A DNA stretch of 64,000 nucleotides from IMG/VR virus record IMGVR_UViG_3300035208_005701, one strand, 5' to 3'. This document shows positions 7,249 through 47,187 of the stretch, piece by piece (the first letter of the stretch is position 1; each line of letters begins with the position of its first letter). The stretch comes from a virus. Lineage: Duplodnaviria > Heunggongvirae > Uroviricota > Caudoviricetes. Below the pieces are notes generated by a model. That model did no database searches. It was given only the letters and a program-made list of their open reading frames with translations, and had not been told where the DNA came from. Made by a program: the position numbers and the translations under genes.

Positions 7249-7249
7249 A

Positions 7250-7489: not shown

Positions 7490-7508
7490 TTTAATAGGCT
7501 TTGAATAG

Positions 7509-7526: not shown

Positions 7527-7615
7527 ATTTATACTTAGTAGTACTAAACTTTGTCTTGTGAGTTTTTAAGGAAGTTTTATAAGATTTTTTTTAAAACATG
7601 TTATGAAGGAGGAGA

Positions 7616-9589: not shown

Positions 9590-9610
9590 AAAAGAAAAAG
9601 GAGTTTAAAG

Positions 9611-10052: not shown

Positions 10053-10057
10053 TTTAA

Positions 10058-12316
10058 ATGAGCAAAGAATATTCATATAAAGATATTAAAGTTCTTAGTG
10101 AATTAGATCATATCAGATTAAACCCTGGTTTGTATATCGGGGAACTTAAAAATCCAAATCATCTTTGTTTCGAATTGTTAGATAATTCATTAGATGAAAG
10201 TATTCCTGGTTATGCAACAATAGTGGGAATAGTAATTAATACTCAAGAGGGGACAATTTCTGTATTAGATAATGGTAGAGGAATCCCTATTGAAAATAAT
10301 ACTATTCCTACTATAGCAACAAAACTTTTTTCAGGTGGTAAATTTGAAAAGAGTGAAGGTGGAAATGCTTATAAAGTTGCTTGTTGGGTTGGTTCTACAT
10401 TAATAAAAACTTTAAGAGGTCCTGTATCTATAGATGAGCTAATGGAAAATCCAGAAGTTCATCATCAGATTATATCACGACAAAAACATAATGGTAGAAA
10501 TTTTTGGAAAGTAGGATATATAAAAAAATGTCATTTAACTGGATATAGTAGAATATTTGTCAAAGTTACATTAAGTAATGGTTATACTGAAATGTGTACT
10601 CCTGAACAGTTATGGAGAACTAGAAATGGAAGATGGGTACCTGCTAAAAATTTAGAAGCGGGAACTTCATTGCTCACTTATAATTTAAGTGCTGATAATT
10701 ATTTTCCAACGGCCATGACTAGGAAAGTTACTAAAATTCAAAAAATGAGATTGAAAACCCAACTTCCAATATATGATATAATTGTTCCTTTTGGAAATTC
10801 ATATACTTTGGCTTCTGGGGCGCTTGTTCACAATTCTGGACTGCATGGAATAGGTTTAGTAGCAGTTACAGCATTGTCTGAATGGGTATCAGTCACTGTA
10901 CATAGAAATAATAAAAAGGCATTTTATAAATTTACAAATGCAAAATTAACAGAAGAAAAAATTACAGATTTTACTGAGAAAGCTCCTTATTCTACTCAAA
11001 TAACTTTTAAACCAGATAAAAAAATATTCGAATCTATTAAGTTTGAGGTTGATGCTATTCGACAACGAATGAAATTGGCTAGTGTGCATATTCCTCATTT
11101 GCAATTATTATTAATTGTTGATGGACAAAAAGAAGTAATAAATTGCGATGAGAATGATTATTTTCTACAGACATTGTTAGATGGAAAGAAATCTGAAAAT
11201 TTAACTTCAATTTTTGATATTAAAAAGAAGATTAAAGATGAAGAATTACATATCAAATTTTGTTGGGATTTTGAAGGTTCATCTGCTCCAAAACAAACTG
11301 GTTGTGTCAACTTGTTAAAAGTTGATCAGGGTAATCATATTAATATGGTATATTCTTCAATTAGAGATGTGTTTGAAGAATTAGGAAAAAAAGAGAAAAT
11401 GAAATTTACTGCATCTGATTCATTAGTTGGATTTAGATGTCATACTAGTCTTATGCTTTATAAGCCAGAATATACCTCTCAAACAAAAGAGAAATTGGCA
11501 ACATCTAAAGAAAAATTAAATCATTTATTTGAATCTGTTCAGATTGATATAAAAAAAATACTTAATGATAATCCAGAATTAAAAACTCAATTATTATCAA
11601 GTTTTGAAAATTATAGAAGAAGAATGGAGACAGGTAGAAGTATTGTTAAGACTGATGGAGTAGTTACTAGATTTAGCACTATTTCGGATTCTAAGTTGAG
11701 AGATTGTACTTCTAATTCTACGACTCAAACAGAATTATTCGTGACTGAAGGAACTAGTGCATCTGGATCTTTAATCCAATGTAGAGATCCGAGATATCAT
11801 GGAGTATTAGGATTAAAAGGAAAAATTCCAAATTTAGCTATGGCTGGAAAAGATGAATTGAAAAATAAAGAAATAGTGGAAATTATAAATGCACTTGGAA
11901 CTGGTATAGAACCGCATTTTAATTATCAAGGTCTGCGTTATGGAAAATGTATTTTTGCTTGCGACGCAGATGGAGATGGTTGCGCAAGATATGACTCTTT
12001 GATATATCTAAAAAATAAAAACGAACAAATACTAATAAAAGAATTAAAAGATCTTGTAGATAATAAAGATTATTTTAAAGATCATTTAATTTTAGGATAT
12101 AATGAAGAAGATAAAAAGTTCACATGGACTGAAATTATAAAAATATGGCCTTATAAAATATTTTCTGAATGGATAGATATAATATTGGAAAATGGACAAA
12201 TTATATCATTAACTCAAGACCATTTGGTTTTAACTAATAGAGGTTATATTAGAGCAGATGAATTAAATCAAGAGGATATTATAATAGATGCAGAAGAGTT
12301 TAGAGAAATTAGATAA
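10058..12316 (+). CDS. Type II topoisomerase ATPase plus Toprim (GyrB-like / T4 gp39-60-like) N-terminal polypeptide. It carries a contiguous mini-intein and ends in a split-intein N-fragment
   Basis: GHKL motifs ELLDNSLDE and DNGRGIP. ...SGGKFEKSEGGNAYKVA | intein | SGLHGIGLVAVTALS matches GyrB GGKFD..SYKVSGGLHGVG. Toprim ELFVTEGTSASGS. ...DADGDG is then followed by CARYDSLIYL... instead of the expected SHI..LLTFF. Confidence 0.8.
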   Translation: MSKEYSYKDIKVLSELDHIRLNPGLYIGELKNPNHLCFELLDNSLDESIPGYATIVGIVINTQEGTISVLDNGRGIPIENNTIPTIATKLFSGGKFEKSEGGNAYKVACWVGSTLIKTLRGPVSIDELMENPEVHHQIISRQKHNGRNFWKVGYIKKCHLTGYSRIFVKVTLSNGYTEMCTPEQLWRTRNGRWVPAKNLEAGTSLLTYNLSADNYFPTAMTRKVTKIQKMRLKTQLPIYDIIVPFGNSYTLASGALVHNSGLHGIGLVAVTALSEWVSVTVHRNNKKAFYKFTNAKLTEEKITDFTEKAPYSTQITFKPDKKIFESIKFEVDAIRQRMKLASVHIPHLQLLLIVDGQKEVINCDENDYFLQTLLDGKKSENLTSIFDIKKKIKDEELHIKFCWDFEGSSAPKQTGCVNLLKVDQGNHINMVYSSIRDVFEELGKKEKMKFTASDSLVGFRCHTSLMLYKPEYTSQTKEKLATSKEKLNHLFESVQIDIKKILNDNPELKTQLLSSFENYRRRMETGRSIVKTDGVVTRFSTISDSKLRDCTSNSTTQTELFVTEGTSASGSLIQCRDPRYHGVLGLKGKIPNLAMAGKDELKNKEIVEIINALGTGIEPHFNYQGLRYGKCIFACDADGDGCARYDSLIYLKNKNEQILIKELKDLVDNKDYFKDHLILGYNEEDKKFTWTEIIKIWPYKIFSEWIDIILENGQIISLTQDHLVLTNRGYIRADELNQEDIIIDAEEFREIR
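10382..10834 (+). mobile_element. Mini-intein (151 aa, Hint domain only) inserted in the GyrB-like ATPase domain between YKVA and SGLHG
   Basis: Begins with Cys (CWVGSTLIKT) and ends IYDIIVPFGNSYTLASGALVHN followed by the extein Ser. The flanking exteins rejoin into the conserved GyrB KV-SGLHG motif. GC content is visibly higher than in the surrounding sequence. Confidence 0.75.
11981..12313 (+). mobile_element. Split-intein N-fragment (about 111 aa) at the Toprim DxDGxH site, running to the stop of the N-terminal topoisomerase polypeptide
   Basis: The extein ...CIFACDADGDG is followed by Cys-1 (CARYDSLIYL...). Block-B-like LTQDHLVLTNRGYIRADEL (TxxH) sits near the end. The ORF stops without the intein C-terminal blocks. 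Confidence 0.65.
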
Positions 12317-13838
12317 AGTTAAACAGTTTTATCTAAATTATCTCAAGACTAAAAAAAGAGGAATTCTTGCTGCTGTAACTTATAGATTAAAAGATCCAGA
12401 GATAAAAACAACTTTGGATCTTTTAGTTCCTCTTCCATATAATTTATCTCTTAAATTTCATATGTGGTGTATTAGGAATTATGAATTGCCGAAATGTTTA
12501 TATTGTACCAAAGATTTACTTTTTAATTTGAAAAAAGGATTTTATACAAGTACCAAGCATAGATGCTGCTTCAAACCTCCTTATAATAATATTTATAGCA
12601 ATTATGAACAATTTTTCAATATGCCATCTTTAATGAAAGTTGATTATAAAACGTTCATACAACGACCAAATATTAAAAAAATAATTACTGAATTTTTAGA
12701 AAAATTTCCATATTTTTCTGATTATAAAACTCATATTTTCTCTCTATTTTCTTATGTTAAAAATTATGATGATTTATCATCTATACCTTATTGTAGAATT
12801 TGTGGAAAAAATAAAGTTTCTATTAATTTAACTTTATTATCCAAAAATAAGATATATTTTAATGATTATTGTTTTTCTTGTGTTCAAAAGTCAACTATGG
12901 AAAAAAGTATATCTTCAATAAAACAAAAATACAATGTAACAAATGTCAGTCAATTAGATTTTGTTAAGAAGAAGAAAGAGCAAACTAGTTTAAAAAATTA
13001 TCATGTAAAAAATCCAATGCAATCTGAAATAGTTAGATCTTCTCATAAACAAACATGTATTGATAGATATGGTGTTGAAAACGTATCTCAATCTGATCAA
13101 ATTAAAGTTCAAAAAAAAGAAACAATTTTAAAAAATTTCGGAAATTGGGAAACATTTATACAACATACATTAGGTGCATTTTGTAAAAGTAAAGGAGTTG
13201 AAAATGTATCTCAATTGAAAGAAGTAAAAGATAAAAAGATTTTAACATTTTTAAATCATTATGGAGTTGAAAATTGTTTTCAATCAGAAGAGATAAAATC
13301 TCAATCTAAATTAACATGTTTGAATAGATATGGATATGAATATTATTCACAAAGTATAGAAGCAAGAAGAAATACGAGAGAGAGATTATTAAATCAAATT
13401 GAAATTCAATTTTTGAACGGTGAACCTCTTGTTCCCACAATAGGGATATTTGAAAGAGAGTGTTTTAATTATTTAGAAAGAGAATGTAATATTCAAATTC
13501 TTAGAAATTCTAGATGTATAGGTTATTTTGTTGATGGATTTATACCATATATAAATTTATGCATAGAGTTTGATGAGGAGTTTCATTTTGATAAATATGG
13601 AAATTTATTAGATGTAGATTTAAGAAGACAAAAAGAAATTCAAGATTATCTATCATGTGAATTTTTTAGAATTTCTAAAAAGAATTGGAATGTAAATAGA
13701 GAAAGAGTAGTTACTAATTTTAAAGAAATAATGGAAAAATGTTCAAATAAAATATCAGATAATAATATTAAAGTCATTTTCGAAAATAGACAATACAGAA
13801 TAATTAGGAGTAACTATGAAGATAAGGAAAATAAATAA
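12288..13838 (+). CDS. Free-standing putative homing endonuclease between the two intein halves, with a PD-(D/E)xK / Vsr-like nuclease core at the C-terminus
   Basis: Inserted exactly between IntN and IntC in a different frame. Tandem modules of about 30 aa (RYGVENVSQSDQIK / KGVENVSQLKEVK / YGVENCFQSEEIK / RYGYEYYSQSIE). C-terminal GYFVDGFIPYINLCIEFDEEFH resembles the D...(E/D)xK 'IEVDG..H' nuclease signature. Confidence 0.5.
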   Translation: MQKSLEKLDKVKQFYLNYLKTKKRGILAAVTYRLKDPEIKTTLDLLVPLPYNLSLKFHMWCIRNYELPKCLYCTKDLLFNLKKGFYTSTKHRCCFKPPYNNIYSNYEQFFNMPSLMKVDYKTFIQRPNIKKIITEFLEKFPYFSDYKTHIFSLFSYVKNYDDLSSIPYCRICGKNKVSINLTLLSKNKIYFNDYCFSCVQKSTMEKSISSIKQKYNVTNVSQLDFVKKKKEQTSLKNYHVKNPMQSEIVRSSHKQTCIDRYGVENVSQSDQIKVQKKETILKNFGNWETFIQHTLGAFCKSKGVENVSQLKEVKDKKILTFLNHYGVENCFQSEEIKSQSKLTCLNRYGYEYYSQSIEARRNTRERLLNQIEIQFLNGEPLVPTIGIFERECFNYLERECNIQILRNSRCIGYFVDGFIPYINLCIEFDEEFHFDKYGNLLDVDLRRQKEIQDYLSCEFFRISKKNWNVNRERVVTNFKEIMEKCSNKISDNNIKVIFENRQYRIIRSNYEDKENK

Positions 13839-13926
13839 AAGAAAATTAAATAATATAAATTTTTGCGACTTAACTACAGGAACTGGAAATTTTGTATTAG
13901 CAAATGGAAATGTTGTTATTCATAAT
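13816..13926 (+). mobile_element. Split-intein C-fragment (37 aa) at the start of the C-terminal topoisomerase polypeptide
   Basis: MKIRKINKRKLNNINFCDLTTGTGNFVLANGNVVIHN followed by S. The length and pattern match DnaE-type IntC sequences (...HNFALKNGFIASN). Confidence 0.65.
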
Positions 13927-14280
13927 AGTCATATTACTACATTATTAATGATTGTATTTTTAAAACTAGTCCCTGAATTAATAAAAAAAGGTCACATTTT
14001 TACAGCAGAGATGCCTCTTTATGGTGCTCAAGTTGGAAAAGTATTTACTCCTTTTTATACAGATGAGGATGTAGAAAAATTTAAATTATCTAATCCTAAT
14101 GTCAAATTACAAAGATATAAAGGTTTAGGTGAAATGAATCCAGATCAATTGAAAGTTTGTTTATTAGATTCTTCTAGACGATTGCATAAAATTGAATTTC
14201 CTGATAATAGCGAAGATCTTTTAAAACTTATGATAGATGCTGATCTCAAAAGACAATTGGTACAAAGGGAGGAAGAATGA
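13816..14280 (+). CDS. IntC plus the C-terminal part of the GyrB-like topoisomerase II subunit (completes the Toprim and tail)
   Basis: After HN: SHITTLLMIVF (GyrB SHIRTLLLTFF) ... YKGLGEMNPDQL (GyrB KGLGEMNP.QL). Confidence 0.75.
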   Translation: MKIRKINKRKLNNINFCDLTTGTGNFVLANGNVVIHNSHITTLLMIVFLKLVPELIKKGHIFTAEMPLYGAQVGKVFTPFYTDEDVEKFKLSNPNVKLQRYKGLGEMNPDQLKVCLLDSSRRLHKIEFPDNSEDLLKLMIDADLKRQLVQREEE

Positions 14281-15584
14281 AAATTAGCGTGCCGAAATTG
14301 TATTCTGAGTATGGGAGATATATAAATAAATTCAGATCTTTTCCTTTAATTCATGACGGATTGAAAATAGTGGAACGTCGTCTGCTTTATTCTTTATATG
14401 AAGTATCACGAGATCATTATACTAAAGCTGCAAAAGTGATAGGACATTGTATAGGAAATTATCACGGACATGGAGATCAGAGCGCATATGGATCACTGGT
14501 GGGTCTTGTTCAAAATAATTTAGCTGATGGACAAGGTAACTGGGGTTCTGATATCGGAATAGAATCATGTGATCCAGCAGCTATGAGATATACAGAAGTA
14601 AGATGCAGCAAAGATGTTTTGAAATTGGCTTTTGAATTTATCAAGTATGTAGATTTTGAGGCATTAGAACTTGATTCTGAACCAGTATACTTACCTACTA
14701 AATTACCATTTTGTCTTTTACAAAAATATTATTCTCAAGGAATAGGATTTGGGTTTAGAACATATATTCCATGTTATAAAATTAATGATTTAATTAAAAG
14801 ATTAAAGTGGTTATTAGGTGAATCTAAAACTGAACCTATAATTAAACCAATAAGTGATTGTGATTTATTATCTACTAACAATGATTATAAAGAACTTCTT
14901 ACTACTGGAAAAGGCAAGATAGAATTACAAGGTAAGAGTTTCATTGATGGAAAATCAGTTGTAATTCAATCGATTCCTCCCGCTAAAACTTTTCTTAAAA
15001 TAATTCAATTTTTAGAAAAAGATATTACTGCAAAAAATATAGGGTGGACAGATGAATCTAATGGTAGAGATGGAACTAAAGTAAGATTTACTATTTTAAG
15101 ACAAAGAGGATACTCTGTAGAATCATTACAAGATAAAATACAGAAAATGTTAAAAAGTACTATTACATTTGAATGTAATATGTGTGATACGGATGGAAAA
15201 GTAATTTTGGTTCCTCCAGATCAAATGTTACTTACTACTTATAAAATGTATAAAGATACAATAGAAAAATACTTAAAAGATAATATTCAAAATCTGGATA
15301 ATAAAATTCAAGAGATGAATATTATTAAAAAGATCAAGATTATATTACCGGATCTACTTAAAACTTATCCAGATGATCCAGATAAGATAATAGAAAATAT
15401 ATGTAACAAACTTCAAATAACTTCTGATATAGTAAAGGATTTATTTGAAAAATACAATATCAATAGACTGTTAAAAGTAAAAGTTGATATTGAAAAAGTA
15501 GAAACAGACAAACAAGTATTTGTGGACAATTTAAATAATTTAGTAAATTATATCTGGACTGAAAAATATGAAAGGGGATTCTAA
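14277..15584 (+). CDS. Type II topoisomerase DNA breakage-reunion subunit (GyrA N-terminal-like / T4 gp52-like)
   Basis: DGLKIVERRLLYSLYE..., IGNYHGHGDQSAYGSLVGLVQ (GyrA KYHPHGD), and the active-site region AMRYTEVR (GyrA AMRYTE.R with the catalytic Tyr). Confidence 0.8.
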   Translation: MKISVPKLYSEYGRYINKFRSFPLIHDGLKIVERRLLYSLYEVSRDHYTKAAKVIGHCIGNYHGHGDQSAYGSLVGLVQNNLADGQGNWGSDIGIESCDPAAMRYTEVRCSKDVLKLAFEFIKYVDFEALELDSEPVYLPTKLPFCLLQKYYSQGIGFGFRTYIPCYKINDLIKRLKWLLGESKTEPIIKPISDCDLLSTNNDYKELLTTGKGKIELQGKSFIDGKSVVIQSIPPAKTFLKIIQFLEKDITAKNIGWTDESNGRDGTKVRFTILRQRGYSVESLQDKIQKMLKSTITFECNMCDTDGKVILVPPDQMLLTTYKMYKDTIEKYLKDNIQNLDNKIQEMNIIKKIKIILPDLLKTYPDDPDKIIENICNKLQITSDIVKDLFEKYNINRLLKVKVDIEKVETDKQVFVDNLNNLVNYIWTEKYERGF

Positions 15585-16021
15585 TGTTTTGTAGATTATA
15601 TGAAGCAAAAGTTGGTACAGATATGGATTTTACTTCTCATGAAAAATGTATAAAAAAAGAATGTATGAATTTTGATGATGTATTACAATGTACAATTTCT
15701 AGAGATGTAAATATTCATTTGGATAACAATAAATTTGGATGGGAAATAGATCGACAAATTAATTTGAAAGAATTAAAATTAACAAAAAGTGAATTAAGTT
15801 CTTATTTTTTCGATAAGATGATAAAAATAATACATCCAAATAATCCAGATATTTGGATCTTTGATTGCTTAAAAAAAGATAAAGAGTCTCAAGTGTTTCT
15901 TTTATATGTTGGTGGCAGACACAAAGGAACATTTAAAACTATGAAAGAACTTATGCATAAATTAAAGAATGAGGTCGAATATACTGGTAGAGATTTGATA
16001 GAGAAAGATTTTATAATTTAA
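15584..16021 (+). CDS. Hypothetical protein (145 aa)
   Basis: ORF with an ATGA-type junction; no motif. Confidence 0.4.
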   Translation: MFCRLYEAKVGTDMDFTSHEKCIKKECMNFDDVLQCTISRDVNIHLDNNKFGWEIDRQINLKELKLTKSELSSYFFDKMIKIIHPNNPDIWIFDCLKKDKESQVFLLYVGGRHKGTFKTMKELMHKLKNEVEYTGRDLIEKDFII

Positions 16022-16030
16022 AGGAGAAAA

Positions 16031-16459
16031 ATGTATATAATACGAAAAAAAATTAAATTTGAAATGGGGCATAGATTGACTGGTGCGTATACTAAATTAT
16101 GCAAGAACAGCCATGGACATAGTTTTGAACTGGAATTATTTTTTAGAAGTGACAAACTTGATGAAGATGGATTTATAATTGATTTTAAATTAATTAAAGA
16201 TAAACTTAAAGATTATATAGATAAATGGGATCATTGTTTTGTTATTTCTTCTCAAATGGATAAAGAATATATAGATTTTGAAAAGAAATACAATGATAAA
16301 ATTGAAGTAGTTGATTTTAATCCTACAGCTGAAAACATGGTAAAAAATATGTATGATTATATTAAGATTCAATTTCCTTGTTTGTGGAAAGTCAGACTTC
16401 ATGAAACAGATACTGGTTATGCTGAATATTATGAAGATGAAAAGTGTTGTAAAGGATAA
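16031..16459 (+). CDS. queD: 6-carboxy-5,6,7,8-tetrahydropterin synthase (QueD / PTPS family)
   Basis: GHRL...CKNSHGHSF (Cx3HGH zinc/catalytic motif) ... IIDF ... WDH. The size of 142 aa is typical. Confidence 0.75.
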   Translation: MYIIRKKIKFEMGHRLTGAYTKLCKNSHGHSFELELFFRSDKLDEDGFIIDFKLIKDKLKDYIDKWDHCFVISSQMDKEYIDFEKKYNDKIEVVDFNPTAENMVKNMYDYIKIQFPCLWKVRLHETDTGYAEYYEDEKCCKG

Positions 16460-17836
16460 TTGATCATAATGTATTTTATAAAAACATCAGCGATCAGAAT
16501 TCCTACTTCTTTATCTAATCATGAATGGTATCAAAATATTATTTCAGATTTGACAAGAAAAGAACGTGATTATAATAATCCTACGGTAGAAGTATCTAAA
16601 ACATTTTTTGATATAAGGGATGGGATGATGCTTCTGCCTAGGAATTATAATGTTCAAATATCTGGACATGATATTATTGATTGTAATTCTAGTGGTGAGG
16701 ATATAAAAATAGAATTTAAATCTTCATTCAAAAATGATTTGCAAAAAGAAGCTCATAATGGAATGATAAATAGCGAATCATGTGTATTATGTATGCAACC
16801 AGGTGAAGGAAAAACTGTAATAGCTATATCAGTAATTTGTACATTTAAAAAGAAATCTATAATTTTCGTACATAAAGATTCTTTAGCTGTTCAATGGAAA
16901 GAGAGATTTTTACAACATTCTGATTTAAAAGATGATGATGTAGGAATGTTAAAAACCCATGAACATCTAGAAATTTTAAAGAAACCAGTAGTTATCAGTA
17001 CAGTTCAAACATTATGTAGTATGATAAGAAGATTACCAAATATAGAAAAAATATTACATGATGCTAATTTTGGTATAGCTTTTTGGGATGAATGTCATAC
17101 TTCAGTAAGTGCTGAAATGTTTTCGTTGAGTTCATTATATTTACCAGTAAAAAGATCTTATGGATTATCTGCAACCCCTTCTAGAAGTGATGGAAATTCT
17201 GATATTATAGAAAAACATGTAGGGAAAATATTTATTCCTTCTGGTTCTGGGCAAACTTTAACTCCACTGATAGTTGTTGTACAATTTAATCATGGAGTTT
17301 TATGTAATCATCGAGAATATATTTTTAATGATTTTCGAACAGGAAAGAAAGAATTTTCAAGAGAGAGATATTTGCAAATGTTAGTTAGTAAAAAAAATCA
17401 AATGTATGTTAATACAATGAAAAAAGTTATTAAATATATTTATAATTCTAAAAGAATAACTTTATTTCTATCAGATAGAATTAAAATTTTGGATGTTGGG
17501 TCTGAAGTTATTCCAAAATTTGATGTTGGTTTTTTTATTCCTAGAAGTGGAGAAAATAGAGATACTGATTTATTAAAGAAATTTGTATTTAGTACTTATG
17601 GTTCTGCTAGAGATGGAACAGATAGGCCACAATTTGATTGTTTAGTTATGGGAACGCCTACATCCAATTTAGCACAGTGTGTAGGTAGAGTTTTAAGACC
17701 ATATCCAGGAAAATTGCAACCTGTAGTTTTTGATTTTGTAGATATCGGATGTTCTCAAATGGAAGGATTATTTGAAAATAGAAAAAATTTTTATGAAAGA
17801 AAAAATTGGAATATAGAATATAGATTGATAAAATAA
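16460..17836 (+). CDS. Superfamily-2 DExH helicase / ATPase
   Basis: Walker A-like QPGEGKTVIA and DExH box FWDECH. Confidence 0.55.
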   Translation: MIIMYFIKTSAIRIPTSLSNHEWYQNIISDLTRKERDYNNPTVEVSKTFFDIRDGMMLLPRNYNVQISGHDIIDCNSSGEDIKIEFKSSFKNDLQKEAHNGMINSESCVLCMQPGEGKTVIAISVICTFKKKSIIFVHKDSLAVQWKERFLQHSDLKDDDVGMLKTHEHLEILKKPVVISTVQTLCSMIRRLPNIEKILHDANFGIAFWDECHTSVSAEMFSLSSLYLPVKRSYGLSATPSRSDGNSDIIEKHVGKIFIPSGSGQTLTPLIVVVQFNHGVLCNHREYIFNDFRTGKKEFSRERYLQMLVSKKNQMYVNTMKKVIKYIYNSKRITLFLSDRIKILDVGSEVIPKFDVGFFIPRSGENRDTDLLKKFVFSTYGSARDGTDRPQFDCLVMGTPTSNLAQCVGRVLRPYPGKLQPVVFDFVDIGCSQMEGLFENRKNFYERKNWNIEYRLIK

Positions 17837-17962
17837 TTATAAGTTTGCACTGATGATTTTTTTTTGTGTTTTTAGATATATTGTATAGTGGTATTTACTA
17901 ATACCACAATGAATAAATTATATATGATGATTTGACAAATAAATATATTAAAAGGAGTATAA

Positions 17963-18442
17963 ATGAAAACTAAATTTAAATTTGTATTTGTATTGTTTAT
18001 TTTATTAATTTTTGGAATGTTGCTTCCTGGTTGTATTTTTTCTTATTTAAGTTATAAAAATTCAGAAAAAGAAATATTACAAGAAAGAATAATGGCATCA
18101 GGAAATGAAGATGCTATAAAAGCATTAGAGATGGGAATTTCTGAAAAGAAGATTATATCAGCAGTTCCAATTGAAAAAGGAGTAGCTTTAAAAATAAGTA
18201 TTCAACCTGGAATGATGGAAGTACTTACTAAAAATGGATTAAGACAAACTGGAGCTGCAATACTAGATGCTGGAACTATTTATGCAATAGCTCAAGCAAC
18301 TAAATCGAATTCAGATACTACTAATAATGATAATAGTACTACTAACAATACGACCAATAATAATAGTACTAATGGAAACAATTCTCCTATTATTAATGGT
18401 AATGATAATAATTCTACCGGAGATGATAATGGTGGAGAATAA
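17963..18442 (+). CDS. Putative lipoprotein with an Asn/Thr-rich low-complexity C-terminus
   Basis: Signal peptide plus lipobox LLPGC, followed by NNDNSTTNNTTNNNSTNGNNS. Confidence 0.5.
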   Translation: MKTKFKFVFVLFILLIFGMLLPGCIFSYLSYKNSEKEILQERIMASGNEDAIKALEMGISEKKIISAVPIEKGVALKISIQPGMMEVLTKNGLRQTGAAILDAGTIYAIAQATKSNSDTTNNDNSTTNNTTNNNSTNGNNSPIINGNDNNSTGDDNGGE

Positions 18443-18458
18443 TTATAAAAATAATAGA

Positions 18459-18498
18459 ACTGGGGATATTATAATGATTGTATCTCCAGTTATATTTA
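18459..18498 (+). terminator. Hairpin (actggggata / tatctccagt, 9 of 10 positions paired) followed by a T-rich tail
   Basis: Read directly, downstream of the 17963 gene's stop. Confidence 0.4.
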
Positions 18499-18520
18499 AA
18501 TAAAAAGGAGTTTATAGATT

Positions 18521-18898
18521 ATGAATGGTCAAATTAGATCAAGTGAAATACCGCAAGAAATATATGTAGCTATCTTAAACAGAAAAGGATTCTGTTTTAA
18601 TAAATCTTTAAAAATTTTCTGGAATGAACAAGAGAAGGGGTGGACTAATTCAGTTAAAAAAGTTTTTATAACAAAGCTTGGACTTTCAGTTAGACATTAT
18701 TCGATATCGTATTCATCTCCAGAAAGAGATAAAGTTCAATCTTGGATGCTTGGTATTAGATGTTGTAATTATATGCATAAAATTGATCCTTTAATATATT
18801 ATGCGAATTTAAATGAAAAGTTCTTATCAACAAAGAAAAAAGATTTTAATAACGATATTGAAGAAACTATTGAATCAATAAAAATCGCAGAGGAATAA
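18521..18898 (+). CDS. Hypothetical protein (125 aa)
   Basis: AAAAGGAG RBS upstream. Confidence 0.4.
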   Translation: MNGQIRSSEIPQEIYVAILNRKGFCFNKSLKIFWNEQEKGWTNSVKKVFITKLGLSVRHYSISYSSPERDKVQSWMLGIRCCNYMHKIDPLIYYANLNEKFLSTKKKDFNNDIEETIESIKIAEE

Positions 18899-19225
18899 AT
18901 GAAAGAAACAAAATTAGAAATAAAAATTGGAAAACGAGAGGATAAAGTATTAATTGAATTTTCTGATAAAGTTTGTTATTTACTTTTAAATCCTAAAGAA
19001 GCATCTAATATATCTGATACTATAAAAAAAGTTTCTGAATCTATTTTAATTTTTAACAATGGAAATAAGAAATGAAGACAGTATATATTTTTATTATTTC
19101 TATTTTATTATCTGGTTGTATTTTACTAAATAATGATCTTAGACCTCCATTAATGAATAATGATTCATTTATGAATTTTCAAACATATGAAAATCAAAAT
19201 TTGATATATGGGAGTAATTATAATT

Positions 19226-19891
19226 ATGCTTAATTTATTTTCTGAATTTAAAAAAACTAATTTTAAAGGGGGATTTTTTAAATTCAATCTTAACTTATTA
19301 TATACAGATCCAAGAGAAGTAGATTTGAAATTTAGAGCTCCGAGAAAAATAGATAATAGAGATATGTGTTTGCTTACTGATAATCAAGGTGATTCACCAT
19401 ATTGTGCTGCATATTCTACTGCTGGTTATATAGAATTTCAAAATTGGAAAACTTTACATTATCCATCTCAAATAGATTCTGTACAAATTTATAAAAAAGC
19501 TAAAGAGTTAGAAAATAATAATGCAGATGGAACTAGTTTCGAATATACTGTAGATGCTGCTAATAAACTTAATTTAATTAAAGGTAAATTTTCTATAGTT
19601 AAAAGTGAAGTATTAAGTATTAAATTTGCAATTCATCAATTTGGAGTTTGTTTAGCTGGATTTTTAATAACTGATGAATGGAATTATGTATCAAAGAAAA
19701 GTGGTATAATATCTAAAAATTCTAAACCGCAAATTCTGGCGGGTCATGCTGTCATATTAACTGGTTATGATGATACTGGAGTATATATTCAAAACAGTTG
19801 GGGTGATTCTTGGGGAGTTCATGGATTTGCTATATTATCTTGGGATCAATGTATTGATCAATTATTGTATGGTGCAGTTATAGAAAATTAA
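19226..19891 (+). CDS. Papain-like (C1 family) cysteine peptidase (alternative start 19208)
   Basis: QGDSPYCAAYS (catalytic Cys region, compare QGxCGSCWAF), GHAVILTGYD (His) and NSWGDSWGVHGF (Asn-Ser-Trp-Gly). Confidence 0.65.
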   Translation: MLNLFSEFKKTNFKGGFFKFNLNLLYTDPREVDLKFRAPRKIDNRDMCLLTDNQGDSPYCAAYSTAGYIEFQNWKTLHYPSQIDSVQIYKKAKELENNNADGTSFEYTVDAANKLNLIKGKFSIVKSEVLSIKFAIHQFGVCLAGFLITDEWNYVSKKSGIISKNSKPQILAGHAVILTGYDDTGVYIQNSWGDSWGVHGFAILSWDQCIDQLLYGAVIEN

Positions 19892-20109
19892 TATAAATTA
19901 TCTAGTAAAAAGTAGAGTGGGGGATTATGAAAATATTTAATTTTTATGCTATTGATTTTTCATGTTATAATAAAACTACTATTAAATCAAATTTAGATCT
20001 TGAGCATTGCAAAGTAACTCCATTAGAATGTAATGATAAAGAAGAAGCTAAAAAATTAATCAAAGATGATCAAGTACTAGTTCAGATTGTTAAAGATTAA
20101 GGAGAACAA

Positions 20110-20299
20110 TATGCACACAAGAAAAGAAATTAGAGATTTGTCAATTGATTTTTTAAAAAGTGATAATGGGATAAATAAAGATACGTGGAAAATGCTAAAA
20201 GAAATTTTGATTGATGTGAAAAGTTGTCATGATATAATTGATAGTGTGAGAATTTTAGATAATAAAGTATATCTACCAGCAGATTTTGGATGTAGATAA
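20110..20299 (+). CDS. Hypothetical small protein (start moved to the ATG after AAGGAG)
   Basis: RBS aaggagaacaat-ATG. Confidence 0.35.
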
Positions 20300-20320
20300 A
20301 TTAAAAAGGAGTTTGAAATT

Positions 20321-20599
20321 ATGGGTAAATACATTAATCCAAGTAATGAATCGAAAGAACAATTTTTAAATAGATTGGGAACTGAAATTCCTGTTTCAAT
20401 TTTAAATCAAAGAGGATTTCAAAATATAATAATTGATGGTAATCTTGCTGTATGTCTAGTAGATAATGGTATGTTTACAGCTGCTGGAATTATGGATTCT
20501 CAAAAAGAAATGGATGACTGGATTGTAAATTTAAAAGATGAACGACCGAAGAAATATTATCTTGTTAATAAAGAACATCTAGTTTCTTTTTTAAAGTAA
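20321..20599 (+). CDS. Hypothetical protein (92 aa)
   Basis: RBS aaaaaggag. Confidence 0.4.
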   Translation: MGKYINPSNESKEQFLNRLGTEIPVSILNQRGFQNIIIDGNLAVCLVDNGMFTAAGIMDSQKEMDDWIVNLKDERPKKYYLVNKEHLVSFLK

Positions 20600-20635
20600 A
20601 AGAGAACAAAATAATTATAAGAAAGGAATCAGTAT

Positions 20636-20899
20636 ATGAGTGAAAATGAATTAGAAGCTACATTAATAGATAAAGTGAAAGTTAAAGCTGGACGATTGAT
20701 CAAAGTAGTAAATACAAATATTCCGAAATTTTCAAATGCAAAAAGACATTATTTTGCTGTTTGGGTAGAAGATGCAAATGGATCAAATGAAAGATGTCTT
20801 TTATTTTCTGAAGCAGAATTGAAGAGTGCTGAACATAGATCAGAAAAAAATAAAGAAGATTTAACTACAAAAGGTTTTGTTTTTGATTTGTTAGATTAA
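20636..20899 (+). CDS. Hypothetical protein (87 aa)
   Basis: ORF with RBS. Confidence 0.4.
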   Translation: MSENELEATLIDKVKVKAGRLIKVVNTNIPKFSNAKRHYFAVWVEDANGSNERCLLFSEAELKSAEHRSEKNKEDLTTKGFVFDLLD

Positions 20900-20911
20900 T
20901 TAAAAATTTAT

Positions 20912-21273
20912 GGGGGAGTAAAGGTTTCGACGTGGTAAATTAAGTATGAATTGCATGTAGAGGATGATCGTTGGCCTCTTAAATAATCGATTAAAAAATA
21001 GACGAAAATTCTATTGATTTTTCTCCATTATCTCTTGCTGCATAAGTGAGACCAATTCTTAGGGATATTTCGACTTGAGAATTGACATAATTGAAATTGC
21101 AGGTTGAATAATTCGTTAAATTGTATTCAAATAAGAATCTTTAAATTAACTAGAATCAATATATAATAGTTTGTTGAATATATAGATTTTAAATTATTAA
21201 TACGAACTAAACATGTGAATGAAGTTTATATAGTATTTATTACGGATCTGGGTTCGACTCCCAGCTCTTCCAT
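20912..21273 (+). ncRNA. ssrA: tmRNA (SsrA-like), one-piece, about 362 nt
   Basis: 5' GGGGGAG-taaaGGTTTCGACG (compare GGGGCUGAUUCUGGAUUCGACG). 3' T-arm ctggg-TTCGACT-cccag, then ctcttcc pairing with the 5' gggggag, and discriminator A. Internal tag frame 21001..21045 is gac gaa aat tct att gat ttt tct cca tta tct ctt gct gca TAA (..DENSIDFSPLSLAA*), preceded by aaaaaaTAGac as in the E. coli resume context. Confidence 0.8.
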
Positions 21274-21280
21274 TTATAAT

Positions 21281-21344
21281 GTATAGGGGCGGAGTACATT
21301 TGTCGCTTAAATCGCCTGCACTGTGAAAGGAATAGAACCTATAC
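21281..21344 (+). terminator. Long hairpin (gtatagg ... cctatac, with an inner ggcg ... cgcc stem) followed by ttatttta. A likely terminator or processing structure after the tmRNA
   Basis: Read directly. It is too short and lacks a T-loop, so it is not a tRNA. Confidence 0.45.
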
Positions 21345-21404
21345 AATTATTTTATTAAGGAGGAAGTTTGTAATTTATTTCAATTTATATACTAAGGAGA
21401 TATA

Positions 21405-21626
21405 ATGGCATTATTATGTAAGTCAATAAAGTTAACTAATAAATTTTCATTGGATTTGGTTATATTAGATAAGTTAAGAGATTGGAATGATGGTTTTGCT
21501 AAATATAAAGCCGAATACAGACCTTCTTTTCAATTTATGATTGTACTATTGAATTATACATTGATTGAGTTAGATATTTATAATGTGAATCATTTAGTCG
21601 ATACTGATGATATGGAAGATGCATAA
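21405..21626 (+). CDS. Hypothetical protein (73 aa)
   Basis: RBS aaggagatataATG. Confidence 0.35.
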   Translation: MALLCKSIKLTNKFSLDLVILDKLRDWNDGFAKYKAEYRPSFQFMIVLLNYTLIELDIYNVNHLVDTDDMEDA

Positions 21627-21658
21627 TTTTTAAGAATTAATACAAAAGGAAATAATAA

Positions 21659-22060
21659 ATGAAAAATATGTCAAATTATAAAATATTAGTTCAAGATTTA
21701 TTAAAAGATGAAAATAATATCAAGGTTAGAACTTTTAAGATAGTAGATAATGATCCATATTTTGGAGAACCATCAATAGTTGCTAGAGTAACTTGTGCAT
21801 CAGAAAAAATTTCAGATGATGAATTTTTATTAGAATTTTCATTTTGTAGTCCAAAAGATCATTATTGTAAAAGTTATGGTCAATTTGTTGCTCTTAGTAG
21901 ATTGATAAATGGTAATAAACAAATAAGAGTTTGCAAGGGCGACCAGAAATTTTTAGAACCAATTATCAAAGAAAAATTACAAAAATATACTGCTAGAAAT
22001 GTTCCTTGGTTAAATAAAATGTTTACTCAATCAATGATGACAAGATATACTATTCATTAA
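21659..22060 (+). CDS. Hypothetical protein (133 aa)
   Basis: RBS aaaggaaataataaATG. Confidence 0.4.
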   Translation: MKNMSNYKILVQDLLKDENNIKVRTFKIVDNDPYFGEPSIVARVTCASEKISDDEFLLEFSFCSPKDHYCKSYGQFVALSRLINGNKQIRVCKGDQKFLEPIIKEKLQKYTARNVPWLNKMFTQSMMTRYTIH

Positions 22061-22285
22061 TAAAATTATAGGGATTAATTGAACAAATAATAAAATTTAC
22101 AAATCATGCATGTATAATTATGTATCCATGCTTATAGTTTAGAAGGGAGTTCGATACTAAGAAACTTAAGTTTTCAAAGATATTTCAATAAACAGTTGAT
22201 ATTAAGCCATTTATAATTTATTAGTAGAACAAATAAAAAAGTAATATTTTAATGTTTTTATTTAATAAATTATCAAAGGATTTAT

Positions 22286-23170
22286 ATGAATCCAGTAAAA
22301 AACAAGTTTTATGTTGATAAAAAAATAAGTTCTACTAATGGCTTAGATTTATGGATGAAGATGGAAGAAAAATCAAAGGAATATATTTCTGATTACAAAA
22401 GTAAATTTGAATCAAAAATAGTTTTTGAAAAATCAAAATGGTATTGTTTATGTTTTTTAAGTGATTTACATTTTGGATCGGATGGAGTTAATTATAAAAA
22501 GGCTAGAGAGGATGCAGAATTAATAGGGAGTAATCCTTATACATTTTCTGTATTAGGAGGTGATTATATTGATAATTTTATTAGTGCTAAAATAATAGAA
22601 CCATTAATACAAGCAACTACTACTCCATCTCAACAAATAACTTTATTTGAAGAATATTTAAAATTTTTTAATAAAAATATAATGTTAATGATAAGTGGAA
22701 ATCATGATGACAGAACAAAGAAAATAACAGGTTTGGATTTTTTAAAGGTGATAGCTGATAAAGAAAAAATTTTATATTCACCTGATGTTCATATATTTTC
22801 TGTGAAAAATGGAAATGCTAATTATACTCTTTCAATAAGACATTCTACTAGATTTTCATCTATGTATAATTATACACATTCTGTTAAACAATCTAGAAGA
22901 TTCGGAGAACATGAATATGATATAGGAGTAATATGTCATCAGCATACTCCAGCAGTTGAAGATTGTTATATACAAGGTAATCATTTTATAGCTATTAGAA
23001 CTGGAAGTTATAAAGTTGCAGATTCTTATTGTAAAAAGACAGATTTTCCAGAATCTAAACCAATATCTCCTTGTGTAATTTTAGCACCAAATGAAAAGAA
23101 AATGATTTCAATGAAATATTTAGATGAAGCTATTGATTTTGTAACTTATAAAAATAAAAAAGGAAAATGA
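22286..23170 (+). CDS. Calcineurin-like metallophosphoesterase
   Basis: Motifs DLHFG, GGDYID, GNHDD, and H.H later (HQHTP). Confidence 0.6.
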   Translation: MNPVKNKFYVDKKISSTNGLDLWMKMEEKSKEYISDYKSKFESKIVFEKSKWYCLCFLSDLHFGSDGVNYKKAREDAELIGSNPYTFSVLGGDYIDNFISAKIIEPLIQATTTPSQQITLFEEYLKFFNKNIMLMISGNHDDRTKKITGLDFLKVIADKEKILYSPDVHIFSVKNGNANYTLSIRHSTRFSSMYNYTHSVKQSRRFGEHEYDIGVICHQHTPAVEDCYIQGNHFIAIRTGSYKVADSYCKKTDFPESKPISPCVILAPNEKKMISMKYLDEAIDFVTYKNKKGK

Positions 23171-23173
23171 AAT

Positions 23174-23470
23174 ATGGCAAAAATTACACCTAAAAAAGAA
23201 ATTTTGGAAACCGCAAAGAATTGCAAGAAACAAAACAAAAAAAGAATTATTACTCTAGAAGAGGCTAAAGCTATATGGTTAGTATGGGATAGAGTGAATA
23301 AAAAAAAATTTTCAAAACAAATAGGTATTAATTCAAATAAACTTAGATCTTTATATCAATTTTTACAAGATAATATGGATGCAAATTCTCAGGATGATTT
23401 GTCTGATTCAGATTTTGAAAAATATGTAAAGGAGTTTAATGAGTGCCCAATGTTACAACGTGGTAAGTAA
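23174..23470 (+). CDS. Hypothetical protein (98 aa)
   Basis: ORF only. Confidence 0.35.
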   Translation: MAKITPKKEILETAKNCKKQNKKRIITLEEAKAIWLVWDRVNKKKFSKQIGINSNKLRSLYQFLQDNMDANSQDDLSDSDFEKYVKEFNECPMLQRGK

Positions 23471-23678: not shown

Positions 23679-24482
23679 ATGAAATTTATTTATGCTACTG
23701 ATTTACATGGAAATCATGAAAAATTTAGAACAATTTTAAATTTTGCTAAAGAATATGATTATAAAATAATTCATTTAGGTTCAGATTTTTTACCAAAGAA
23801 TCATAATATTTTACAAACTCAATTAAATTTTATAGAAAACTTTTTTTGTAAGTTTGTTAAAACATGTGGAGATTTTGGAATAGAACTTTTTTATCATTGG
23901 GGAAATGATGATACATTATATTCATTATATAATGCCCCATTAATGATTAGTAATAAAAATAAAGCTATTTCATTTATTAAAAATTATAAACTTATATCTT
24001 ATAGTTATGTTCCAGATTATCCATTTTTACTTAAAGATTTTTGCAAATCAGATTTTGATAATTGGACTCATCCAAAATATTTTTTTGGTACTCCGGAATA
24101 TTCTGATGAAAATGGATTTCATTTAATAGATGATATTAGTAAATTTTTTAAAGATCGAGGAACAATAGAGGAAGATCTAAAAAATTTAAAAGTAGATAGG
24201 AATACTATATGTTCATTTCATTGTCCTCCTTATGGATTAGATTTGGATGTATGTAATGATGGAAGACGAGTTGGATCTAAATCTATATATGATTGGATTG
24301 AAAAAGAACAACCTTTATTAGTTTTAAGTGGTCATATTCATGAAAATTATGAAATGACTAAGACATGGAAAAACTACATTAAAAATACTTTAGTAATCCA
24401 ACCAGGTCAAAGAGGAGCTTGTAGATTTGTAATTATAGAAATTAAAGGAGATGAAATAGAATCTAGTTTAGTTGAAATTTGA
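23679..24482 (+). CDS. Calcineurin-like metallophosphoesterase
   Basis: DLHGNHEK, GSDFL, GNDDT, GHIHEN. Confidence 0.6.
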   Translation: MKFIYATDLHGNHEKFRTILNFAKEYDYKIIHLGSDFLPKNHNILQTQLNFIENFFCKFVKTCGDFGIELFYHWGNDDTLYSLYNAPLMISNKNKAISFIKNYKLISYSYVPDYPFLLKDFCKSDFDNWTHPKYFFGTPEYSDENGFHLIDDISKFFKDRGTIEEDLKNLKVDRNTICSFHCPPYGLDLDVCNDGRRVGSKSIYDWIEKEQPLLVLSGHIHENYEMTKTWKNYIKNTLVIQPGQRGACRFVIIEIKGDEIESSLVEI

Positions 24483-25003: not shown

Positions 25004-25846
25004 ATGTACCAAATAAATAGTGATTACTTATATAGAATAGGTTCTTCTCATTCTGTATGTCAAGATTATTGCATATCTGGTAATTTAAGACAAATGATGC
25101 CTTATATTATTATTGCAGATGGATGTTCAAGTTCTCCTCAAGTAGATGTTGGATGTAGAATTTTAGTTCATTGTGCTAAATGGCAATTGGATGTATCTTT
25201 AATATATAATCAACATACAGAACATCTTGATTCATTTGCTGATATAATGGGGGATAGAATAATTAAAGATGCTGATATTATAAAGAGAAATCTAAATTTA
25301 CATGATCAAAGTTTAGATTCTACTTTATTAATTGCATTTATATATCATGGAAATATTAATATTATAACTTACGGAGATGGTAATTTTCTAATAAAGAGAC
25401 GAGATGATATCATAACCAATACTAGATTATCATACTCTAGTGGTGCCCCATATTATTTAAATTATCTTACAAATAAAGAAAGAAATGAAAGATATAAAAA
25501 GGAATTTAAAGATTCGGTATTTGAATCTGAAGTGATAATTAATAAATCTTCTACTAAAATTGAATACCCTTTTAGTCACCATTTAACATATCAATGTCCA
25601 ATTCAAGATGTTGAATTTCTTTTATTAGCTAGTGATGGATTGACTACTTGGGAAGATAAATTTCATAATTTTATTTATATTCCACCTCAAGAATTCTTGA
25701 ATTTTAAAAATACTACAGGGGAATTTGTAACAAGAAGAATAAACAGAATAACAAAAGATATGAAAGAAAGAAATATTAGTCATTACGATGATTTAAGCAT
25801 AGCTGGATTTCATATTCAGGAGGTTGATAATGGAATATCAGATTAA
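25004..25846 (+). CDS. PP2C-like Ser/Thr phosphatase (tentative)
   Basis: IIADGCSSS...VG and LLASDGLTTWED resemble the PP2C Asp/Gly-rich metal-binding motifs. Confidence 0.5.
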   Translation: MYQINSDYLYRIGSSHSVCQDYCISGNLRQMMPYIIIADGCSSSPQVDVGCRILVHCAKWQLDVSLIYNQHTEHLDSFADIMGDRIIKDADIIKRNLNLHDQSLDSTLLIAFIYHGNINIITYGDGNFLIKRRDDIITNTRLSYSSGAPYYLNYLTNKERNERYKKEFKDSVFESEVIINKSSTKIEYPFSHHLTYQCPIQDVEFLLLASDGLTTWEDKFHNFIYIPPQEFLNFKNTTGEFVTRRINRITKDMKERNISHYDDLSIAGFHIQEVDNGISD

Positions 25847-27545
25847 AGATATTCAAACAAAATCAATTAATTCAGTATCATTGACAAATGCTCATTTTAT
25901 AACTGAAGGTGGAGAAGGAAAAGTATTTGGAAAAAATGATACAATATATAAAATTTATATAGAACCTAAAAAAATGATTTCTCTATCTAAAATACATGAA
26001 CTTTCTTATTTAGATAAAGATAATATATTAAAACCATTAAATATTATACTTGATAAAAAAGGTATACAAATCGGATTTACTATGAAATGGTTAAAAAATT
26101 CTACTCCGATATGTAAATTATTTACAAGTGATTTTTGGACTAGATTTAATATCAATAATAAGATTATTTCAGAGCTAGTTAAAAATATGATTAATGATAT
26201 TAAATACATTCACAGTAAAAATTGTTTAATAGTAGATGGAAATGAAATGAATTATCTTATAGATTCTAAGAATTTTATTTTTCCATATTTTATTGATGTA
26301 GATAGTTATCAAACTTCTAGTTTTCCAGCAACAGCTATAATGACATCTATTAGAGATTTACATTCAAATACTTTTTCTGAATTAACTGATTGGTTTTCTT
26401 TTGGTATTATTTCTATTCAATTATTTATAGGAATACATCCATTTAAAGGGACTCATCCAGATTATTCTAAAAAAGATTTAGAGAAAAGAATGAAAGATAA
26501 CATTTCTATATTTAATAAAGATGTAAGACTTCCAGCTACTGTTAGAGATTTAAATTGTATTCCAAAAGAATATAAAGATTGGTATATTAAATTATTTGAA
26601 AAGGGAGAAAGATTGCCTCCACCTCAAATAGGAATTGTTACTGTTTCAATAATTAATAAAAAGATTATAAATAATTCAGATTCTTTTAAGATATCATTAT
26701 TTAAAGAAATAGAAAATGATATAGTAAAAATTGATGATGAAGGAAATATTTATTCAAAAATAAAAATTTATATTGATAAAGGAGAATATGATAGTAATGT
26801 AGATTCAGATTTAATTTATTCTATTAAATCTTTTACTCCGATCAAAGTTCATATAAATGAAAAAAAAATGATCTTAGAAAAATTAAATGGTGAAAAAATT
26901 AATTGTATATATGAATGTAATAGTAAAACATTAATAGATAACCATCTTTATATTTTAAATGATGATAAATTATTGGCTATAGAGATAGATGAAATTGGTA
27001 AAACTTTTATTCCAGTAGTTAAAACCTTTTGGAATGTTTTGCCTAATTCTACTAAATTGTATTCTGGAATTATTTATCAAGATATTTTAGGACTTCCATA
27101 TTTCAACTTGCCATATATCTCTAAAAATGGAAATCGAGCATGTATGACTAAGTTAATTAGTGAATTAAAGAAATATAAAATAGTTGAAATGAAGAATGAT
27201 AAAAATGTGATTTTTGTCATTGCTTTTAAAAATGGTAAATATGACAGATTTATTTTTAAAGTCAATGATGATTATTCTGAATATAATTGTCAGAAATTTG
27301 AAGATGTGACATATCATGTTCCGAATTTTGTCACTCTTGATAATGGGGTGGTTGTATCTATTAATGATGATGATCAAGTAGAAATTTTTAGTAGAAGTTT
27401 GTTAAAATCAGATATCAATATAATAGAAGATAAACATATAAATTATAATATGAAATTGTGGAAAAAGGGAGTGAATGTTTTTATAACAGAAGAAAATAGA
27501 ATGTATAATTTTTCAATGAAAAAAAATGAAAGGGAAATAGTATGA
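25830..27545 (+). CDS. Eukaryote-like Ser/Thr protein kinase-like protein
   Basis: IHSKNCLIVDGNEMNYLID (catalytic-loop-like), FIDVDS (DFG-like) and DWFSFGIISIQLFIGIHPF (the APE / D.WS.G region). Confidence 0.55.
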   Translation: MEYQIKDIQTKSINSVSLTNAHFITEGGEGKVFGKNDTIYKIYIEPKKMISLSKIHELSYLDKDNILKPLNIILDKKGIQIGFTMKWLKNSTPICKLFTSDFWTRFNINNKIISELVKNMINDIKYIHSKNCLIVDGNEMNYLIDSKNFIFPYFIDVDSYQTSSFPATAIMTSIRDLHSNTFSELTDWFSFGIISIQLFIGIHPFKGTHPDYSKKDLEKRMKDNISIFNKDVRLPATVRDLNCIPKEYKDWYIKLFEKGERLPPPQIGIVTVSIINKKIINNSDSFKISLFKEIENDIVKIDDEGNIYSKIKIYIDKGEYDSNVDSDLIYSIKSFTPIKVHINEKKMILEKLNGEKINCIYECNSKTLIDNHLYILNDDKLLAIEIDEIGKTFIPVVKTFWNVLPNSTKLYSGIIYQDILGLPYFNLPYISKNGNRACMTKLISELKKYKIVEMKNDKNVIFVIAFKNGKYDRFIFKVNDDYSEYNCQKFEDVTYHVPNFVTLDNGVVVSINDDDQVEIFSRSLLKSDINIIEDKHINYNMKLWKKGVNVFITEENRMYNFSMKKNEREIV

Positions 27546-47185: not shown

Positions 47186-47187
47186 TT

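Follow-up and report, generated by a model that had tools for sequence, protein, structure and literature searches.

The window considered here is a stretch of 64,000 nucleotides from the virus record IMGVR_UViG_3300035208_005701 of IMG/VR (Caudoviricetes). At 20912–21272, on the + strand, ARAGORN calls a one-piece transfer-messenger RNA (tmRNA, ssrA), the sole tmRNA in the window, and reads in it a tag peptide, ENSIDFSPLSLAA, followed by a stop. The Rfam covariance model RF00023 matches 20912–21275 over the whole model (1–374, not truncated) with 105.4 bits and an E-value of 3.9e-40, the gathering score being 47. The two methods agree on the tmRNA, and the match is far above chance level; its score falls inside the span of 99–170 bits measured for 15 other tmRNAs from viral contigs. 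The model of the permuted, two-piece tmRNA, RF04321, has the same gathering score of 47, and with 23 bits the match stayed below it. A first-pass annotation had placed a one-piece tmRNA with 5′ and 3′ tRNA-like halves at this position and had proposed ARAGORN and RF00023 as a check; both return it at full length. We conclude that 20912–21272 is a genuine, structurally complete, one-piece tmRNA gene. A Y-shaped stem-loop, to which we return below, follows it.

What are the parts of this RNA? The gene is 361 nt long and its last base is the discriminator (ARAGORN, RF00023 and the sequence itself); all the elements described here lie on the + strand. In the acceptor stem of 7 bp, the 5′ strand GGGGGAG (20912–20918) pairs with CUCUUCC (21265–21271), both in the sequence and in the brackets of the Rfam alignment, and includes a G3:U70 and a G4:U69 pair. 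The G3:U70 wobble pair is the determinant of alanine identity. The discriminator is A21272; the next four bases are AUUU, so that CCA is not encoded. The T-arm (21248–21264; Rfam alignment and sequence) has the stem CUGGG/CCCAG and the loop UUCGACU, and helix P2 is present.

To describe the messenger-like part we aligned the gene to E. coli ssrA, using a reference sequence verified as 100% identical to annotated ssrA among 5,426 E. coli genomes. The first pseudoknot, PK1, is of the H type and occupies 20959–20993, with the pairings AGAGG/CCUCU and UGAUCG/CGAUUA (pseudoknot enumeration and alignment to E. coli PK1). It is followed at 20994–21003 by the single-stranded resume-codon leader AAAAAUAGAC, located by alignment to E. 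coli ssrA and to the Rfam consensus. With A20993 included the leader reads AAAAAAUAGAC; its E. coli counterpart is AAAAAAUAGUC, and 10 of the 11 nucleotides are identical. Helix 5, a stem of 7 bp at 21033–21051 found by RNAfold of the segment, holds the UAA stop of the tag frame in its loop and 3′ strand. PK2 (21053–21095) consists of an 11-bp hairpin, CAAUUCUUAGG/CUUGAGAAUUG, and the candidate loop pairing UUCGA/UUGAA; PK3 (21104–21138) of the 7-bp UUGAAUA/UAUUCAA and the candidate AUUC/GAAU; and PK4 (21151–21209) of the 7-bp UAGAAUC/GAUUUUA and an 8-bp loop pairing, UAGUUUGU/ACGAACUA. For these three pseudoknots, taken from the Rfam alignment and pseudoknot enumeration, the covariance model places the hairpin stems, and the crossing stems can be drawn and are plausible.

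Where does translation resume? At 21004 AAAAAAUAGAC|GAA aligns with the E. coli AAAAAAUAGUC|GCA, and the Rfam consensus and ARAGORN concur in making GAA (Glu) the resume codon. The tag reading frame (21004–21045; ARAGORN, E. coli homology) comprises 13 sense codons, including GAA, and the stop UAA at 21043–21045. Complete with its first residue, the tag is predicted to be A-ENSIDFSPLSLAA. Apart from an Asp that it had set in brackets in front, the tag given in the first-pass annotation is what ARAGORN reads. That Asp codon, GAC, lies upstream of the resume codon and outside the tag frame; the ‘DEN’ start said to be shared with E. coli depends on it and does not hold. The LAA end of the tag uses the G+C-rich codons GCU and GCA despite a genome of 26% G+C, and UAA comes directly after. 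In E. coli it is chiefly the C-terminal LAA that ClpX recognizes.

How unusual is such a tag? Two sets of tmRNAs were available for comparison. A generic, restrictive tmRNA pattern matched at least 120 contigs in IMG/VR, and 108 tmRNAs were extracted from the matches listed; among these matches at least 31 contigs are of 100 kb or longer and at least 11 exceed 200 kb. The second set, of 87 tmRNAs, was drawn from the 94 loci that a pattern specific for the T-arm had picked out of 185,579 species genomes, among them Acidimicrobiia, Leptospira and Myxococcota. The tag had been called atypical. This cannot be said of its length, since 14 of the 108 viral tmRNAs sampled also have 13-residue tags, nor of its ending, LAA being the commonest in both sets (57/108 viral, 70/87 bacterial), and Ser or Pro is frequent within the tags of the comparison tmRNAs. 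The Glu resume codon is its only real oddity. The body of the tag matches that of none of the 195 comparison tmRNAs, and the G+C content of the gene, 29.9%, is the lowest among 109 viral-contig tmRNAs, the next lowest being 38%. Three traits are therefore unusual: the Glu resume codon, the very low G+C content and the lack of a close relative.

The last of these traits came from several searches. The DNA of the locus had no match among 50,697 phage records by megablast and blastn; exact patterns for the 3′ end, the tag frame and the hairpin returned 0 matches in IMG/VR, and the first 20 nucleotides of the tmRNA returned 0 matches in the JGI metagenomes. The same locus does recur in contigs from three other samples, 100% identical save for one mismatch in one contig, and these offer no variation for an analysis of covariation. 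A pattern of the tRNA-like domain retrieved from metagenomes only two AT-rich contigs, L223 and L224, unrelated to the tmRNA of the window. These two carry an identical tmRNA (L223 7406–7756, L224 1845–2195) with the tag ADDYAVALAA, together with dispersed tRNA genes, L223 having 31–33% G+C. They are probably another phage, whose kinship with the tmRNA of the window is limited to the tRNA-like domain. Among the viral contigs of the comparison set, several large ones have their tmRNA among tRNA genes, and others have it at the contig end, as at the border of a prophage; one (L012) has a group I intron near the tmRNA and another (L018) an abiF RNA.

In what kind of genome does the gene reside? 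The window has a G+C content of about 26%, and nearly all its open reading frames (ORFs) are on the + strand. Split genes for the β and β′ subunits of a multisubunit RNA polymerase stand at both of its ends (75–2267, 2522–6634 and 59784–62534). The large subunit is 22–30% identical to those of jumbo phages (phiR1-37, Staphylococcus phage S6 and the phiKZ-like phages), a low identity that points to a deep-branching lineage of the jumbo type. Also encoded are a T4-type topoisomerase II, a helicase and SbcCD, as well as a PP2C/kinase pair, QueD and radical SAM genes. Of 71 ORFs, 44 have a Shine-Dalgarno motif in front of them, where the background is 8.5%; this speaks only against hosts that make no use of such motifs. 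We conclude that the window is part of a phage genome, neither a host chromosome nor a prophage junction; the phage setting claimed at first is borne out by jumbo-phage genes on both flanks.

This conclusion bears upon one alternative, namely that the gene is a bacterial ssrA serving as an integration site, the window being host chromosome or the junction of a prophage. ssrA is a well-known integration hotspot, and many of the IMG/VR matches do have the tmRNA at a contig end. The tmRNA described here, however, is complete in length, with 21 kb of the window on one side of it and 43 kb on the other. Its flanks run on the same strand at about 26% G+C and carry phage genes, with RNA polymerase subunits on either side; no integrase family was found in Pfam and PHROG searches of the ORFs of at least 75 aa; and the flanking genes are syntenic with those of a phage contig, L002. 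On these grounds the alternative is effectively refuted, and we accord it almost no credence.

Does the phage carry other genes concerned with translation? Three tRNA genes (Pro-TGG, Leu-TAG and His-GTG) lie at 46772–48601, 25 kb from the tmRNA, and none of them encodes CCA. They are scattered among small ORFs and form no packed array, and the tRNA-His has an encoded G-1. At 35531–36670 is a protein resembling RNA ligase 1 (PF09511, 2.7e-18; phrog_562, 3.7e-58), and at 37335–38219 a T4-type polynucleotide kinase/phosphatase (HAD_PNKP, 2.8e-46; phrog_505, 1.6e-87). In T4 the polynucleotide kinase and RNA ligase form a pair that mends tRNA cut by a host anticodon nuclease. The RNA-repair pair, the tRNAs and the tmRNA together suggest a set of genes for the protection of translation.

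What surrounds the tmRNA directly? From 20087 to 22285 on the + strand extends a lineage-specific variable block of 2.2 kb, delimited by tblastn synteny with L002. Besides the tmRNA and the hairpin it holds five small orphan ORFs. L002 (JGI contig Ga0366841_1000116) is the closest syntenic relative; it matches the window at 13816–20100 and 22286–23470 (tblastn) and has a DUF7168 gene in place of the block. The neighbouring metallophosphoesterase is 58% identical between the two. Among the neighbouring proteins, the 294-aa metallophosphoesterase has 8 homologues, and the one of 133 aa is an orphan. The tmRNA is thus lineage-specific cargo at a variable spot.

What, then, does the gene do? We consider it likely that it specifies a functional one-piece tmRNA, as predicted, of an uncultured, very AT-rich jumbo phage, and that this RNA rescues stalled ribosomes with the aid of host factors. 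Directly observed are the features of sequence and structure, the setting in a phage and the lack of an SmpB gene in the window. Several observations nevertheless weigh against this reading. The best global identity to the 108 viral tmRNAs is 0.63 and to the 87 bacterial tmRNAs 0.61, both at background level, so that neither a donor nor a host is identified. Because no relative of the tmRNA was found, PK2–PK4, with their crossing stems, and the tag are known from a single sequence; over helix 5 and PK2 the alignment to the covariance model is weak, with posterior probabilities of 2–4. None of the 195 comparison tmRNAs has a Glu resume codon, their tags beginning with A, G, D or V. No SmpB family match was obtained among the window ORFs of at least 75 aa, so that the host, or phage genes outside the window, must supply the partner. 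L002 has no tmRNA within the 20 kb examined, from which it follows that the tmRNA is dispensable for the lineage. Finally, as regards the hairpin, a terminator scan of 20000–22500 finds none, its structure is branched, and terminator-like sites in 1–20000 are at chance (4 found, 3.3 expected).

Some of these observations would also be expected if the gene were a decaying copy, a captured bacterial tmRNA gene drifting towards an AT-rich composition and inactive in trans-translation. The weak alignment through helix 5 and PK2, the lack of a tmRNA in the closest syntenic relative and the non-canonical resume codon can all be read in this way, as can the lowest G+C content of the viral set and a bit score that lies very low in the measured range. 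Against decay, however, the defining elements are all intact: G3:U70, the T-arm, P2, PK1, the leader, an open frame of 13 codons, LAA followed by UAA, helix 5 and drawable PK2–PK4. The tRNA-like domain and the Ala-Ala codons are still G+C-rich against 26% in the genome, and the tmRNA sequence recurs unchanged in the contigs of three other samples covering it. We regard a decaying copy as very unlikely.

How might a functional tmRNA operate in the infected cell? Its expression, processing, charging, use of partners, tagging of proteins and benefit are what we infer from the features above. The tmRNA would be transcribed with the + strand genes, the ORF upstream stopping 12 nt before its 5′ end. 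Host RNase P would produce the 5′ end and host enzymes would trim the 3′ trailer. Because CCA is not encoded in the tmRNA, the host CCA-adding enzyme would be needed to complete it; the three tRNAs of the phage lack an encoded CCA as well. Host alanyl-tRNA synthetase would recognize G3:U70 and charge the RNA with alanine, and host SmpB and EF-Tu would then bring it to ribosomes stalled on broken mRNAs. Translation would resume at GAA, append A-ENSIDFSPLSLAA and end with release at UAA. The C-terminal LAA would send the product to host proteases of the ClpXP type. The benefit may be that ribosomes are kept free while mRNA is being cut, whether by nucleases of the phage or by those of host defence; this reading fits the presence in the window of the three tRNAs, the T4-type polynucleotide kinase and the T4-type RNA ligase 1.

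Could the phage tmRNA act upon the host system rather than assist it? It might compete with the host tmRNA for SmpB and stalled ribosomes, its tag altering the fate of the tagged proteins, or it might sense stalled ribosomes. The Glu start and the Ser/Pro-rich middle might evade host adaptors or recruit a phage factor; neither the tag body nor the Glu start is matched among the comparison tmRNAs, and host SmpB would be shared, the window having none of its own. There are precedents for such ideas: the tmRNA of mycobacteriophage DS6A, reduced to little beyond the tRNA-like domain, has been discussed as a possible titrator of SmpB (PMC4131195), and a sensing role has been suggested for phages (PMC7162821). 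On the other hand, the tag retains its C-terminal LAA, so that degradation is the expected default, which weighs against the speculative redirection of tagged proteins away from ClpXP. Divergence from the host tag is conjectural, and beside the tmRNA there is no phage adaptor or protease, its neighbours being orphan ORFs. An antagonist or re-routing role for this tmRNA strikes us as quite unlikely, and rescue of stalled ribosomes with host factors is the reading that we carry forward.

The tmRNA gene is followed by the G+C-rich Y-shaped stem-loop mentioned at the outset. This occupies 21280–21345 on the + strand, is 66 nt long, begins 8 nt past the 3′ end of the tmRNA and ends about 60 nt before the ORF at 21405. 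Its closing stem of 8 bp, TGTATAGG (21280–21287) with CCTATACA (21338–21345), encloses two small hairpins. The minimum free energy on the + strand is −17 kcal/mol, with a z-score of −1.91, and 8 of 200 shuffles are equally stable; the z-score of the − strand is −0.34. Folded with its flanks the element scores −0.98 or +0.47. Its stability thus exceeds that of shuffled sequences marginally. Inverted repeats as such are nothing special in the window, where 897 pairs are found if the seed is 8 nt and the span at most 120 nt. The first-pass annotation had drawn attention to a long, structured hairpin downstream that is not a tRNA. The hairpin exists and is no tRNA by ARAGORN, at default or relaxed bacterial settings, or by RF00005 at E ≤ 10; it is not demonstrably a significant or a conserved element.

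What else might the hairpin be? We considered three candidates and rejected each. It belongs to no known RNA family and is no armless tRNA, since no Rfam family matches it at E ≤ 10 and ARAGORN finds no tRNA. Nor did it arise as a degenerate copy of a tRNA or of the 5′ end of the tmRNA: aligned locally with these it scores 16, below the mean of 17.3 for shuffles. Nor is it a recurring motif, since a covariance model built on it retrieves the hairpin alone from 0.9 Mb of phage loci, and neither the window nor IMG/VR yields another copy. It is not a canonical intrinsic terminator either, and the U-rich stretch AAUUAUUUUAUU after it is unremarkable at 26% G+C. Structure behind a tmRNA gene is common: for 98 other tmRNAs from viral contigs, the next 90 nt have a median z-score of −1.5, with 47% below −2; the value for the window locus is −0.81. 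The hairpin is a probable 3′ trailer or transcript-end structure.

It might instead be an independent RNA with a function of its own, be it a new small RNA, a signal for processing or a leader that controls the ORF at 21405. Its core (21286–21325) stands out by its 55% G+C: among 40-nt windows it belongs to the top 0.07%, with no more than two tRNAs above it, the windows that tie with it being inside listed ORFs. The fold favours one strand, as the z-scores above indicate, and the placement between the tmRNA and the next ORF would suit such a role. Yet that fold is marginal and no better than shuffles once the flanks are included; the element is without an Rfam match and without a second copy in any of the collections searched, and the locus offers no sequence variation for a test of covariation. 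We hold an independent RNA to be unlikely. Between the hairpin and the next ORF (Shine-Dalgarno 21393–21398, ATG 21405) there is also, at 21357–21373, a strong Shine-Dalgarno AAGGAGG with TTG 4 nt further on and TAA next, which makes a ‘start–stop’ without an ORF.

Elsewhere in the window a few further features were noted. The gene for the large subunit of topoisomerase II seems to be split into an N-terminal ORF of 752 aa (10058–12316) and a C-terminal piece of 154 aa (13816–14280), with an ORF of 516 aa resembling homing endonucleases (12288–13838) between the two; the syntenic contig L002 has one intact gene of 612 aa, and Rfam finds no group I intron at the split gene (10058–14280) at the gathering threshold. 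Two metallophosphoesterases (22286–23170 and 23679–24482) lie directly upstream of the PP2C-type phosphatase (25004–25846). The latter adjoins a protein of 573 aa (25824–27545) with a weak match to Ser/Thr kinases, below the Pfam cut-off. A perfect palindrome of 34 bp (ATGAAACGGAAATAATT/AATTATTTCCGTTTCAT) at 50727–50760 is situated between the ORFs 50066–50713 and 50778–52502 and could be a terminator or an operator.

What does the locus add? It contributes a very divergent, extremely AT-rich tmRNA from what appears to be a deep-branching, uncultured lineage of jumbo phages. The rare Glu resume codon would lend itself to a test of the rules by which the frame is set and the first codon chosen on a tmRNA. 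To our knowledge, no experiment has so far revealed what any phage-encoded tmRNA does in infection. An intact tmRNA beside tRNA-repair genes supports the idea, not a new one, that large phages protect translation. The tmRNA may be more than a simple booster. Its Glu-start, Ser/Pro-rich tag, perhaps together with the Y-shaped RNA, might confer a phage-specific fate on proteins, or it might be part of an anti-defence toolkit; we rate this extension as distinctly improbable. If it were true, the toolkit of tmRNA, tRNAs, polynucleotide kinase and RNA ligase would counter those abortive-infection nucleases of the host that cut mRNA or tRNA.

How does the phage tmRNA compare with known systems? With E. 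coli ssrA and RF00023 it shares the same architecture: an acceptor stem with G3:U70, the T-arm, P2, PK1, the tag frame, helix 5 and the candidate PK2–PK4. The PK1 loop segment UUGGCCUC is identical in the two RNAs, the resume leader AAAAAAUAG(A/U)C is nearly the same, and both tags end in LAA followed by UAA. The phage RNA differs in being phage-encoded, in its G+C content of 30% and in the lack of an encoded CCA. Its resume codon is GAA (Glu) whereas that of E. coli is GCA (Ala), and its tag has 13 encoded residues with a Ser/Pro-rich middle whereas that of E. coli has 10.

Phages with a tmRNA are not without precedent. At least eight mycobacteriophages are among them, as is Bacillus phage G (PMC4131195; for phage G also PMC12484599), and huge phages carry tmRNA, some of them with SmpB as well (PMC7162821). 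The view that tmRNA genes are uncommon in phages therefore stands for small phages; it does not stand for phage G, the mycobacteriophages, the huge phages or the at least 120 IMG/VR contigs. The window resembles the huge and jumbo phages and the mycobacteriophages (phage G; cluster C, e.g. Bxz1; Al-Shayeb et al. 2020) in its full-length tmRNA and large, lytic-type genome, and in having tRNAs and other genes of translation or RNA repair alongside (PMC4131195, PMC7162821, PMC12484599). It differs from several of the large viral contigs, where the tmRNA is among tRNA genes, in that its tmRNA is alone, 25 kb from the tRNAs and among small orphan ORFs. It differs from those huge phages that encode SmpB (PMC7162821) in encoding none, and none of the phage tmRNAs compared is a sequence relative of its own. 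With DS6A it has in common an ssrA-derived sequence, borne by a phage, that needs to interact with host SmpB; in DS6A this is chiefly a tRNA-like domain (PMC4131195), whereas the tmRNA of the window retains a complete messenger domain with all the predicted pseudoknots. Phage tmRNA is an already known phenomenon, of which the tmRNA of the window is a new and highly divergent example.

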